Assembly: GCF_048259695.1 (NCBI RefSeq)
Contig: NZ_JBLXHL010000003.1
Span: 358,304 to 422,303 of the forward strand
Reading direction: 5' to 3'
Source of the DNA: Celeribacter sp.
GTDB lineage: Bacteria; Pseudomonadota; Alphaproteobacteria; Rhodobacterales; Rhodobacteraceae
Length of the DNA: 64,000 nucleotides
Shown: in pieces, positions 24,495 to 27,850 of the stretch
Layout of the letters: every line of letters begins with the position of its first letter
How positions within the stretch are numbered: the first letter of the stretch is position 1
Notes under the pieces: generated by a model
Database searches by the model: none
The model's input: only the letters and a program-made list of their open reading frames with translations
Told to the model about the DNA's origin: nothing
Made by a program: the position numbers and the translations under genes

Positions 24495-24570
24495 AAAAAA
24501 AACGCCGGCACAAGGCCGGCGCAAAGTTATTGAGGCAGGTTTCATACAGGCAAGAAACCTATCGAGCAGT
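24495..24570 (-). ncRNA. Candidate trans-acting sRNA, ~76 nt
   Basis: Promoter upstream, 7-bp hairpin AGGTTTC/GAAACCT, terminator CGCCGGC-cttgt-GCCGGCG + T8; no ORF. Confidence 0.65.
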
Positions 24571-24576
24571 GCCCCC

Positions 24577-24605
24577 TTTATACGCGGTTCACCACCGCAC
24601 TCCAA
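24577..24605 (-). promoter_or_regulatory. Promoter of the sRNA candidate
   Basis: TTGGAG (24605-24600)-N17-TATAAA (24582-24577). Confidence 0.55.
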
Positions 24606-24675
24606 GCTAAAAGTTTGAATTCACCCGCAGGCGGCCTTAGGCTAAGCCTCAACAAAGAAACGGGACGGAGGCATT

Positions 24676-26499
24676 GTGTCCGAGATGGCAACGAACATTT
24701 TCCACGGGCTGCGCATATCTTGCGCCGCATTGGCACTGATTGCGGGCGCGCCCTTTGCGCAGGCCGAACCGATGCATGGCATAGCTATGTATGGCAGCCC
24801 CGAGCTACCACAAGATTTCGTGTCCCTCCCCTACGCCAATGCCGATGCCCCCAAGGGCGGCAAAATCGTCACCGGCGAAGGTGGCACATTCGACAGTTTG
24901 AACCCGTTTATCCAGAAAGGCAGCTCACCGTGGCAGTTGCGCTACATGTTGGCGGAAAGTTTGATGGGCCGCGCCTATAGCGAACCTTTCACGCTGTATT
25001 GCCTGTTGTGCGAGACAATCGACACCGATGAGGACCGCACATGGGCCGAATTTACCCTGCGCCCCGAGGCCCGATTCTCTGATGGTGCGCCGGTGACGGT
25101 CGAGGATGTGATCTGGTCCTACGAAAAACTCGGGACGGAAGGCCACGGCCGCTACGCCTCGATGTGGGAACAGATTGCAAGCATCGAGAAAACCGGCGAA
25201 CGCTCGGTCAAATTCACCTTTAACACCGACAACCGCGAACTGGCGTTGTTGGTCGGGATGCGCCCGATCCTGCAAAAGGCCCAATGGGAGGGCAAGGATT
25301 TCACCAAATCGGGCTTTGACCAGATCCCGATCGGTTCCGCCCCTTACCAGATCACCGATTTCGACGCGGGCAGCTATGTCGAGCTGACGCGCAACCCCGA
25401 GTACTGGGGCAAAGACGTGCCGTTCATGCGCGGTCAGGCCAACCTTGATACCATCCGGTGGGAATTTTTTGCCGATGCCTCCCTCGTGATCGAGGCGTTC
25501 AAAGCGGGCGAATTGAACAGCAACCGCGAGTTCAACGTGCAGACATGGGACGACCAATACAATTTCCCCGCCGTCGAACGGGGCGATGTGATCAAATCCG
25601 TCATCCCGCATCAACGCCCCTCCGGCATGACCGGCTTTGTGATGAACACCCGCCTCCCCCAGTTTTCCGACTGGCGCGTCCGTCAGGCCCTCATCGAGAC
25701 GTTCAATTTCGAATATATCAACGAGGTTCAAACCGGATCGCAACAATCGCGCATCACCTCGTATTACTCCAACTCGGTACTGGGGATGCAAAGTGGTCCC
25801 GCACAGGGGCGCGTGGCGCAATTGCTTGCGCCCTACGCCGATGACCTGCCGCCCGATACGCTTGAGGGGTACACCTTTCCCGCCACCTCCGGCGCGCTCA
25901 ACGACCGCCAATCGACCCGCCGCGCCTTGGCCCTGTTCAAGGACGCAGGCTATACCATCCAGGACGGTGTGATGAAAAATGCCGATGGTGTGCCCTATAC
26001 GTTCGAGATTTTATTGCAGTCCGGTGATGATGAAAATCAATCTATTATAGATACTTACACGCAGTCCCTCATCCAGATTGGCATCACGCCAACCATCACC
26101 GTGGTTGACCGTCCGCAATACCGCGAGCGCAGCGATACCTTTGATTTCGGCATGACCACCATCCGCCGCGGCCTGTCGCTATCCCCCGGCAACGAGCAAA
26201 AGGCCTATTGGGGGTCCGAGGCCGCCGATACCGAAGGGTCGCGCAACCTGATGGGCGTCAAATCCGCCGCTGTTGACGGGTTGATCGACACCATGCTGTC
26301 CTCCGGCAGCAAGGACGATTTCGTCGCCGCCACCCGCGCCCTCGACCGCGTGTTGACCGCCGGTCGCTATGTCATCCCGATCTATCAATGGAACATCTCG
26401 CGCGTGGCCCACGCCAAGCAGCTGACCTATCCCGAAACCTTGCCGATCTACGGCGACTGGATCGGTTGGCAGCCGGATGTGTGGTATTGGACAGAATGA
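24676..26499 (+). CDS. Family 5 extracellular solute-binding protein (YejA-like)
   Basis: HGIAMYG.P, NADAPKGG, TFDSLNPF, LRPEARFSDG, IGSAPY, SPGNEQ. Confidence 0.88.
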   Translation: MSEMATNIFHGLRISCAALALIAGAPFAQAEPMHGIAMYGSPELPQDFVSLPYANADAPKGGKIVTGEGGTFDSLNPFIQKGSSPWQLRYMLAESLMGRAYSEPFTLYCLLCETIDTDEDRTWAEFTLRPEARFSDGAPVTVEDVIWSYEKLGTEGHGRYASMWEQIASIEKTGERSVKFTFNTDNRELALLVGMRPILQKAQWEGKDFTKSGFDQIPIGSAPYQITDFDAGSYVELTRNPEYWGKDVPFMRGQANLDTIRWEFFADASLVIEAFKAGELNSNREFNVQTWDDQYNFPAVERGDVIKSVIPHQRPSGMTGFVMNTRLPQFSDWRVRQALIETFNFEYINEVQTGSQQSRITSYYSNSVLGMQSGPAQGRVAQLLAPYADDLPPDTLEGYTFPATSGALNDRQSTRRALALFKDAGYTIQDGVMKNADGVPYTFEILLQSGDDENQSIIDTYTQSLIQIGITPTITVVDRPQYRERSDTFDFGMTTIRRGLSLSPGNEQKAYWGSEAADTEGSRNLMGVKSAAVDGLIDTMLSSGSKDDFVAATRALDRVLTAGRYVIPIYQWNISRVAHAKQLTYPETLPIYGDWIGWQPDVWYWTE

Positions 26500-26633
26500 A
26501 CATGCGTGTGAAGCTGATGGCCACACTGGTGATCTGCGTGGGCCTCACGGCCTGCGCCCCCGTGGCCATCGCGGGAAAAACCGTAAAAACGGGTGTGAAA
26601 GCCACGTCGAAAGCGGTCGGCACAGTGTTTTGA
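26496..26633 (+). CDS. 45-aa predicted lipoprotein
   Basis: MNMRVKLMATLVICVGLTAC lipobox; ATGA overlap with the upstream gene. Confidence 0.65.
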   Translation: MNMRVKLMATLVICVGLTACAPVAIAGKTVKTGVKATSKAVGTVF

Positions 26634-26670
26634 TCTGCGTTTTAATCTGCGTTCGGGCGGCGTGGCGGCG

Positions 26671-27339
26671 CTATCCCAGTGACGTCACCCACAGGATGGT
26701 CGCATCCTCGGGCGAGATCGAAATCACGTTGTGACCCATAGAGGCGTCATAGTAGGCGCTGTCGCCGCGCCGCATGTCAATCGGCTCATAAAACTCTGTT
26801 ATCAAACAGATTTGCCCCGTCAGAACATAGAGGAATTCCTCACCGTCATGGCGCACCCACCCGTCGAATTCCTCGAAACTGCGGGCGCGGATGGTGGCGC
26901 GGTAGGGCAGCATCTGTTTCTTGGTCAGCGCCCCCGCAAGCATTTCATGCTCATAGGTGGCGGTGGCATGGGCCGCGCCCTCGCCGGCCTTGGTGGTGGC
27001 CAACCGACCCGAAATCTGTTGCTTGCGCGGCGGCGTAAACAATTGCGGCACTGAGATCTCCAACCCGATGGCAAGCTTTTTGAGCGCCTCATAGGTCGGG
27101 GACATTTGACCGTTTTCAATCTTGGACAGGGTTGATCGCGCCAGACCCGCATGACCGGCGGCCTGTTCCAACGTCCACCCGTGTGATTTACGCAACTCGC
27201 GGACCCGCGCCCCGAGGTCGAGCGGATGCGCGTCATCGCCCGCCTCAAGCGCCCGCGCCAAACGGATCAGGCTCGGGTTGCCTGTGGATGCGGCCCCATC
27301 GGGGCGCTCCGGAGAGTTGTGATCGGGATCATCTGTCAT
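26671..27339 (-). CDS. XRE-family HTH regulator with cupin domain
   Basis: LGARVRELRK..WTLEQAA..GLARSTLSKIENGQMSPT; cupin HDGEEFLYVL, GDSAYYD. Confidence 0.9.
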   Translation of the reverse strand: MTDDPDHNSPERPDGAASTGNPSLIRLARALEAGDDAHPLDLGARVRELRKSHGWTLEQAAGHAGLARSTLSKIENGQMSPTYEALKKLAIGLEISVPQLFTPPRKQQISGRLATTKAGEGAAHATATYEHEMLAGALTKKQMLPYRATIRARSFEEFDGWVRHDGEEFLYVLTGQICLITEFYEPIDMRRGDSAYYDASMGHNVISISPEDATILWVTSLG

Positions 27340-27364
27340 GGGGGCATTTAGGCGTGGCGGAGAC

Positions 27365-27406
27365 AAAAAGAAAACCCCCGGATGCTGTTTACCGCATCTT
27401 CGGGGG
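27365..27406 (-). terminator. Terminator about 85-125 nt downstream of the 74-aa ORF
   Basis: CCCCCG(aa)GATGC-loop-GCATCCGGGGG followed by TTTTCTTTTT on the minus strand. Confidence 0.8.
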
Positions 27407-27490
27407 CTCTTTGGGGCAGACGAGGTATGGGGGGATACACTGCTCGTGAGGTCTTGCCTACCCTGTATCTGGTTTGCGCGGGGCGCGCGG

Positions 27491-27715: not shown

Positions 27716-27850
27716 GTGATGAACCTCGTAAAAACTTATGCGTTACAGTTATTTAACCATAAAATACCGCCCCGGAAAAGCATCCCGATTGTTACACCCT
27801 GCCCGCGCAAATCACGCGAACGCAGCGCGAACAAAGCGCGAATATGCATA

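Follow-up and report, generated by a model that had tools for sequence, protein, structure and literature searches.

A conserved small RNA of the Rhodobacterales and a complementary 3'-UTR RNA of Celeribacter: a probable RNA-RNA control pair

UpsM, a structured RNA of the Rhodobacterales, is both a terminated small RNA (sRNA) and the leader of the dcw operon. Its known partner StsR, an sRNA of the Hfq type, pairs with it through StsR nt 16-34 and triggers its processing (PMC8266604, PMC5089854). What is known of UpsM comes from Cereibacter (Rhodobacter) sphaeroides, and StsR is the sole partner in that work. Here we describe two RNAs of the same bacterial order, both encoded in a 64,000-nt stretch of Celeribacter sp. 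DNA (contig NZ_JBLXHL010000003.1, positions 358,304 to 422,303; hereafter the window, whose first nucleotide is position 1). One is RNA A, a 76-nt stand-alone sRNA, and the other is element B, a structured RNA in the 3' untranslated region (UTR) of a gene coding for a 74-aa membrane protein, 3 kb away. An earlier sequence-only reading of the window had noticed that the two are complementary and had proposed either an sRNA with a sponge or target, or a type I toxin-antitoxin-like pair. The analysis described below indicates that A and B are probably a real RNA-RNA control pair, in which B is best read as a lineage-specific decoy or target of an sRNA linked to cell division.

Like UpsM, B ends in a terminator closely upstream of a gene and copies the motif of the UpsM R2 loop. 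The pair differs from StsR-UpsM in that its sRNA is one other than StsR, its second partner is a 3' UTR and not the mraZ leader, and the interaction between A and B is predicted from sequence. B does not lie at mraZ, and of the UpsM architecture (a 5' mraZ leader with regions R2-R4) it has only the R2 loop motif. Another comparison is offered by the enterobacterial sponges, such as SroC acting on GcvB and 3'ETS-leuZ acting on RyhB and RybB, in which a by-product of an mRNA or of a precursor titrates a conserved sRNA by means of a seed match. B is in a corresponding location, on the sense strand of an mRNA 3' UTR with an intrinsic terminator at its end, and it has a conserved and accessible seed complement, CGAGCAGU, in a hairpin loop. 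It differs from the enterobacterial sponges in that the sequences are unrelated and that the seed match lies in a hairpin loop and is part of an extended antisense segment of ~20 bp.

RNA A is encoded on the minus strand at 24570-24495 and has its own promoter and terminator. The predicted promoter (24605-24577, minus) consists of a -35 box TTGGAG (24605-24600), a 17-nt spacer and a -10 box TATAAA (24582-24577). The block AACTTTTAGCTTGGAG...GCGTATAAAG is kept upstream of all copies of RNA A in the genus, and the copies of a second family have TTGC...TATAAT-type boxes at an equal distance. In BLAST comparisons the similarity of the second-family copies to RNA A begins precisely at 24570, which supports this position as the start site. 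The RNA starts with ACUGCUCGAUAGGUUUCUUGCCUGUAU, and its first ten nucleotides (ACUGCUCGAU, 24570-24561) are single-stranded. They are followed by a first hairpin (nt 11-35, 24560-24536) with a 7-bp stem AGGUUUC/GAAACCU, a single-stranded CCUC linker (UGCCUCA) and the terminator (24522-24495), a GC hairpin with a U8 tail, all on the minus strand. BLAST detected RNA A in 42 of 61 related genomes, and an exact 39-nt core was found in at least 120 Rhodobacterales species, in genera including Sulfitobacter, Yoonia, Ruegeria, Leisingera, Tabrizicola, Gemmobacter and Rhodovulum. When 17 copies from 6 genera and two families were aligned, nt 1-41 were nearly invariant. The 7-bp hairpin is invariant, and the terminator contains compensatory changes. 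Judged by this conservation, RNA A is a real and ancient sRNA, conserved throughout the Rhodobacterales. The best explanation of its features is that of a predicted trans-acting sRNA of the Hfq-dependent type, with the 5' end, the CCUC linker and the loop of the first hairpin as its pairing sites.

The 74-aa open reading frame (ORF) at 27715-27491 (minus) has an N-terminal FSTFQGRA motif, one predicted transmembrane helix and a C-terminal LSxIEFLTG motif. Intact orthologues of 74-84 aa were found immediately upstream of B in 29 of the 30 genus loci, and in a second genus (g74) the orthologue has 98 aa. The protein had no family match in Pfam, NCBIfam, PHROGs or PADLOC, and its homologues are annotated as 'hypothetical protein' of Celeribacter. 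By its conservation the ORF is a real gene for a single-pass membrane protein. Two features lie in the ~125 nt following it: the segment AUACAGGGUAGGCAAGACCUCACGAGCAGU (27468-27439), which begins 23 nt past the stop codon and can pair with RNA A nt 1-27, and another terminator on the minus strand. Both are parts of B (27470-27365, minus), which consists of hairpin 1 (27463-27414) with a 36-nt loop and a highly conserved terminator (27406-27365). The core seed match CGAGCAGU (27446-27439) lies within the loop, and its counterpart in RNA A is the segment ACUGCUCG. In the 30 species compared, a hairpin GGGCAGG...CCUGCCC and then the very conserved terminator follow the ORF stop codon; in 29 of them B begins 3-44 nt past it. 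Hairpin 1 is 98.5% paired in the alignment, with compensatory changes in four of its seven pairs and 22 G·U cells. Since an RNA from the plus strand would have A·C mismatches in place of the G·U cells, the RNA is read on the minus strand, and by this covariation B is a minus-strand RNA which folds as a hairpin. A covariance model of B (R1) found one full copy in 32 of 33 genomes of the genus and a single weaker copy among ~250 other genera of the family; by these searches B and the ORF are confined to Celeribacter and one neighbouring genus.

Since B in reverse complement can be aligned with nt 1-24 of RNA A, with 20 of 22 positions identical and one 2-nt gap (CAGGCA--AAACCTCACGAGCAGT aligned with CAGGCAAGAAACCTATCGAGCAGT), an inverted-duplication origin is plausible, and none of 1000 shuffles scored as high. 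This antisense copy lies upstream of the R2-like motif. The sequence-only reading had considered that 27438-27468 might instead be a decayed paralogue of RNA A transcribed on the plus strand, or a cis-antisense RNA to the 3' end of the ORF. Against this stand the 22 G·U cells, and further the plus-strand sequence upstream of B, which in most species is not promoter-like (GTTGGGGGG before ACTGCTCG) and has no conserved -10-like box in the alignment; there is no plus-strand terminator downstream either. We consider a plus-strand RNA extremely improbable. The view that A and B are both minus-strand RNAs with their own terminators, and complementary to each other rather than duplicated, agrees with the conservation of the elements and with the G·U evidence for B.

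Reading of the minus strand reproduced the coordinates, sequences and pairing pattern of the two RNAs as they had first been proposed: 8 bp, a 2x2 mismatch, 4 bp, a 2-nt bulge and 7 bp. The paired part of RNA A comprises, as also proposed, the single-stranded 5' end and the first hairpin. RNAduplex gave -32.4 kcal/mol for A nt 1-28 with B. After subtraction of the cost of unfolding both RNAs, the net gain in cofolding was -11.2 kcal/mol for the window sequences, compared with a mean of -4.7 kcal/mol when A nt 1-28 were shuffled; 1.5% of the shuffles equalled the real pair. With the consensus B, ~21 bp and a net gain of -12.5 kcal/mol were obtained; shuffled seeds gave ~-4 kcal/mol. The exact gapped pairing pattern occurs at these two places only in the whole genome. 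A genome-wide scan (7.15 Mb of two-strand sequence) found ~18 distinct sites of equal or better duplex energy, corresponding to ~0.3 expected sites per 64-kb window. On this one genome alone the match is thus no more than chance, and its significance rests on the comparative data: A and B are each conserved as RNAs, no part of the B loop is better conserved than the block complementary to A, and shuffled sequences were surpassed in all 30 species tested.

In the loop of B, GAGCA is invariant and CGAGCAGU is conserved to at least 90% among the 30 species. The most conserved block, ACCNCA-CGAGCAGU, is complementary to A nt 1-14, and the remaining loop drifts. The A-B duplex was better than that with a shuffled B hairpin in 30 of 30 species (mean z -4.7, every p ≤ 0.02). 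In clades with a changed B stem, other parts of RNA A pair: GGAAACCU with A nt 11-18 and, in a clade with an inserted U, AUCGAGCAGU, which forms 10 bp with RNA A. In genus g74 a diverged B lies, as in Celeribacter, between the small ORF and a cupin gene, and it contains CUAUCGAGCAGU, which is perfectly complementary to A nt 1-12 over 12 nt; RNA A is encoded there 2.9 kb from B on the same strand. In one Celeribacter genome a distance of 20 kb separates A from B, and the two are encoded on opposite strands, so that any interaction between them would be in trans. Judged from these alignments, the complementarity is maintained throughout the genus and in the second genus.

The alternative that the 74-aa peptide is an SOS-induced, TisB-like toxin and RNA A its type I antitoxin was also weighed. 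In E. coli, IstR-1 pairs in the 5' UTR of tisB and co-occurs with it, and type I toxins are usually shorter than 60 aa and mostly hydrophobic. The locus resembles tisB/istR-1 in that a gene for a small membrane protein with one transmembrane helix lies behind a conserved SOS (LexA) box, and a constitutive-looking, complementary trans-encoded sRNA is found 3 kb away. Unlike IstR-1, however, RNA A would pair in the 3' UTR, distant from the ribosome-binding site, and it is far more widespread than its presumed toxin: the sRNA was found in at least 120 Rhodobacterales species, the ORF in two genera only. No small ORF and no B was found near RNA A at 120 other Rhodobacterales RNA A loci, where toxin and antitoxin would thus not co-occur. 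The protein (74-98 aa) is larger than TisB and not purely hydrophobic, its N- and C-terminal motifs being conserved and non-hydrophobic, and the separation of A and B by 20 kb on opposite strands in one member of the genus also speaks against such a pair. A toxin-antitoxin function is therefore very unlikely, and of the two regulatory schemes first proposed the sponge or target is the one retained as the best reading.

The connection to cell division came from a weak BLAST match of RNA A, which led to the host mraZ leader (UpsM; contig C4 of the host genome, ~234600-234820, outside the window). RNA A nt 19-36 (UGCCUGUAUGAAACCUGC; 24552-24535, minus) are complementary to region R1 of UpsM. In the host genome the complement of A nt 19-35 (C4:234660-234681) contains one mismatch, and a perfect 17-18 nt complement, GCAGGTTTCATACAGGCA, is present in the mraZ leaders of other Celeribacter species and of seven other genera; two further genera, including a Cereibacter-like genome, have GCAGGTTTCATACAGGCA with a 1-nt deletion. 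RNA A thus has a conserved complement in the leaders of at least 9 genera and, as far as complementarity goes, resembles StsR in this respect. The loop of the long UpsM hairpin (R2), GCGAGCAGACAUCCCCCCAGG, is invariant in at least 9 genera and complementary to A nt 2-8. B and the R2 loop share CGAGCAG...UCCCCCCA (p ~0.01-0.04) with the C run CCCCCC. Neither the complementarity of RNA A to the mraZ leader nor the resemblance of the B loop to the R2 loop motif had been noticed in the sequence-only reading. By its sequence B appears either to mimic the leader or to derive from a piece of the RNA A gene in inverted orientation, with the A-binding determinants kept.

The five mraZ leaders of the second family (L270-L274) could not be aligned with UpsM, yet each contains a stretch of 7-10 nt that is complementary to A nt 1-10. 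In four of them UGAGGCA, complementary to the A linker UGCCUCA, comes 8-40 nt later; in the fifth the sequence is GGGGCA. Some of the changes look compensatory: U10G in RNA A is accompanied by a C in the leader, and a 5' GAUGCUC in RNA A by GAGCAUC. The binding sites in the second family thus appear to have turned over while the partnership of RNA A with the leader was kept, which is suggestive of the 5' end of RNA A being a working seed.

The motif common to B and UpsM admits an explanation that dispenses with pairing. The B loop might do the job of the R2 loop, for example the binding of another RNA or a protein; B would then rank beside the processed UpsM sRNA as a related RNA, and that it can pair with RNA A would be a leftover of its origin or a coincidence. 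The shared CGAGCAG(N)UCCCCCCA and the invariance of the R2 loop are consistent with this, as is the unexceptional duplex energy in the single genome. C-rich loops are moreover typical seeds of alphaproteobacterial sRNAs. However, the conserved block of B reaches to the 5' side of the motif (ACCNCA, GGCAA), where it matches RNA A and not the UpsM R2 loop; in genus g74 the match to RNA A is extended to 12 nt and the C run appears to have been recruited into a stem; and A nt 2-8 have a complement in the R2 loop as well. We regard the absence of a functional A-B pairing as a serious but distinctly less probable possibility than the pairing itself.

The complementarity to the mraZ leader raised the possibility that RNA A is StsR itself. 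This was ruled out by the published T7 primer, the gene neighbourhood and the co-occurrence of the two RNAs. StsR begins with CCGUUCUACCUUCACUGUC and has the core CACUGUCCCUCGUUCC; RNA A shows no homology to either and no similarity to the StsR primer sequence CCGTTCTACCTTCACTGTC (PMC8307010 supplement). No match to the StsR sequence was found at the RNA A locus with up to four mismatches allowed. In a Cereibacter-like genome the published primer matches a gene between those for a SpoU methylase and a CoA-binding protein, a neighbourhood which is not that of RNA A, and this genome has both StsR and RNA A, the latter with 0 mismatches; no B was found in it. The StsR orthologue of the host genome has the core CACTGTCCCTCGTTCC followed by a terminator and lies between the same two genes (C4:~211985-212060). 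The sequence-only reading had asked whether the RNAs were among the described ones. RNA A is not StsR, SorY or UdsC, and UdsC was also ruled out for B, to which the published UdsC primers did not match.

RNA A matched no Rfam family at the gathering score. The sub-threshold matches (SorX, RyhB, mmgR and rdlD) were driven by the terminator; with the SorX model (RF02784) the score was 21.7 bits at a gathering score of 46.6. SorX, which is from the same bacterial order, resembles RNA A in its succession of a 5' tail, a hairpin, a CCUC linker and a terminator, but it is cut from a 3' UTR, whereas RNA A has its own promoter. A full-text literature search with the RNA sequences returned no matching papers. 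By these comparisons RNA A is apparently an undescribed, second UpsM-complementary sRNA beside StsR. Systems of an sRNA and its decoy or target RNA are known as a kind, but RNA A, element B and the pairing predicted between RNA A and UpsM appear to be undescribed.

With moderate confidence we propose the following model for the pair. Pairing would initiate between the 5' end of RNA A and the B loop and then invade the B stem along its 5' arm, so that hairpin 1 is opened; the duplex would have 19-21 bp and a net gain of ~-11 to -12.5 kcal/mol. As a decoy, B would compete with the mraZ leader for RNA A and titrate it off the leader; such competition would follow from the complementarity of the leader to A nt 2-8 and nt 19-36, since the binding segments overlap. 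As a target, B would be cleaved upon binding, as UpsM is by the action of StsR.

Several points weigh against this interpretation. In the single genome the A-B duplex energy is not exceptional, ranking ~20th genome-wide. The 30 B sequences share ancestry, and the per-species p-values are consequently not independent. The conservation of the pairing had been named as a check: the complementarity is indeed kept in 30 species and in g74, but RNA A is invariant within the family, and this makes two-sided covariation unobservable. GGCAGGCAA, a part of the complementary stretch, also forms the 5' arm of the stem of B, and its conservation is to some extent explained by this. The motif CGAGCAG...CCCCCC may serve a partner other than RNA A. 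As to the mraZ leader, those of the second family align poorly, so that their compensatory changes are suggestive only, and one genome (G039) has GAGCAUC in the leader without a matching change in RNA A. The transcripts of A and B, their ends and their processing are all inferred.

Downstream of B, ~22 nt past its terminator, lies a gene (27342-26671, minus) for a regulator with an XRE-type helix-turn-helix and a cupin domain (Pfam HTH_3/HTH_31 and Cupin_2); a cupin gene is found at this place in most members of the genus and in g74. By analogy with UpsM and mraZ, B may be an attenuator for the XRE-cupin gene. In its strong form this explanation makes B mainly a cis-acting intercistronic attenuator or leader, with RNA A irrelevant or merely modulating read-through. 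The short distance of ~22 nt from the U-tract of the terminator to the ATG at 27342, the presence of the cupin gene after B in two genera, and the conservation of the terminator sequence, including its loop, beyond the need of a plain terminator are in line with it. On the other hand, the terminator of B stays folded in the predicted A-B complex and no antiterminator is evident; by the same result a role of RNA A as antiterminator of B was ruled out. The spacer between the terminator and the gene (27365-27343, minus) has no Shine-Dalgarno sequence and contains a conserved TAAAAG/TAAAT 7-8 nt before the ATG, which fits a leaderless mRNA or read-through; if this motif is a leaderless -10 element, read-through would be unnecessary. 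The conservation of the loop block is also left unexplained. Attenuation as the main function of B thus appears unlikely, although it is compatible with B being a decoy or target of RNA A.

Upstream of the 74-aa gene two conserved elements were found on the minus strand. The first is an alphaproteobacterial SOS box GTTC-N7-GTTC (27832-27818), ~100 nt before the gene, with half-sites conserved and spacer variable in the genus and in g74. The host lexA and recA genes carry boxes of the same type (GAAC-N7-GAAC), and strict boxes number 103 genome-wide. On these grounds either the small gene or the divergent DsbA-like gene (27994+) is probably SOS-regulated. The second element is a perfect 8-2-8 palindrome, ATTTGCAA-CT-TTGCAAAT (27868-27851), of which GTTTGCAACTTTGCAAAC is conserved in nearly all members of the genus and in g74. 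It is a probable operator for a dimeric regulator and may be that of the downstream XRE-cupin protein. Separately, a conserved GGTTAA(A/C)T was observed at 27735-27770 (minus), ~16-17 nt after a conserved TGACAG/GTGACG box; GGTTAA as a -10 element would fit the alignment at least as well as a CtrA box does.

The SOS box would allow an extension of the decoy model which we consider speculative and rather unlikely in this full form: release of LexA would raise the level of B, B would soak up RNA A, and processing of or read-through from the dcw leader would be altered. B would take A nt 1-25, which overlap both of the segments of A that bind the mraZ leader. If this were true, DNA damage would be coupled to division control by competition among RNA A, UpsM and B alone, possibly joined by a division-inhibiting small membrane protein encoded on the mRNA of B itself. 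SidA of Caulobacter is an SOS-induced small membrane protein of 29 aa which inhibits division. The 74-aa protein, likewise alphaproteobacterial, small and with a single membrane span, is also encoded behind an SOS box and is linked here by RNA to a cell-division leader; no sequence relationship to SidA is expected.

RNA A itself is located between a family-5 ATP-binding cassette (ABC) solute-binding protein gene (24676-26499, plus; Pfam SBP_bac_5), which is of interest as context only, and bdhA. Directly 3' of the solute-binding protein gene there is an ORF for a lipoprotein-like protein of ~45 aa (MNMRVKLMATLVICVGLTAC..., lipobox LTAC; 26496-26633, plus), and a similar C-terminal sequence occurs in genus g74.

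With 39 nt identical in at least 120 species, RNA A is among the best-conserved non-coding sequences of the Rhodobacterales. Circuits of two sRNAs or of an sRNA and a sponge are known, but to our knowledge few of them are from alphaproteobacteria. Even if the pairing proved non-functional, two well-defined new RNA families would be left for curation. UpsM is the RNA hub of the Rhodobacter cell-division genes, and a second partner would change the model in which StsR acts alone. The occurrence in Celeribacter of a 3'-UTR RNA which mimics sites of this leader, behind an SOS box, suggests how a decoy may have originated and points to a possible route from DNA damage to cell division.

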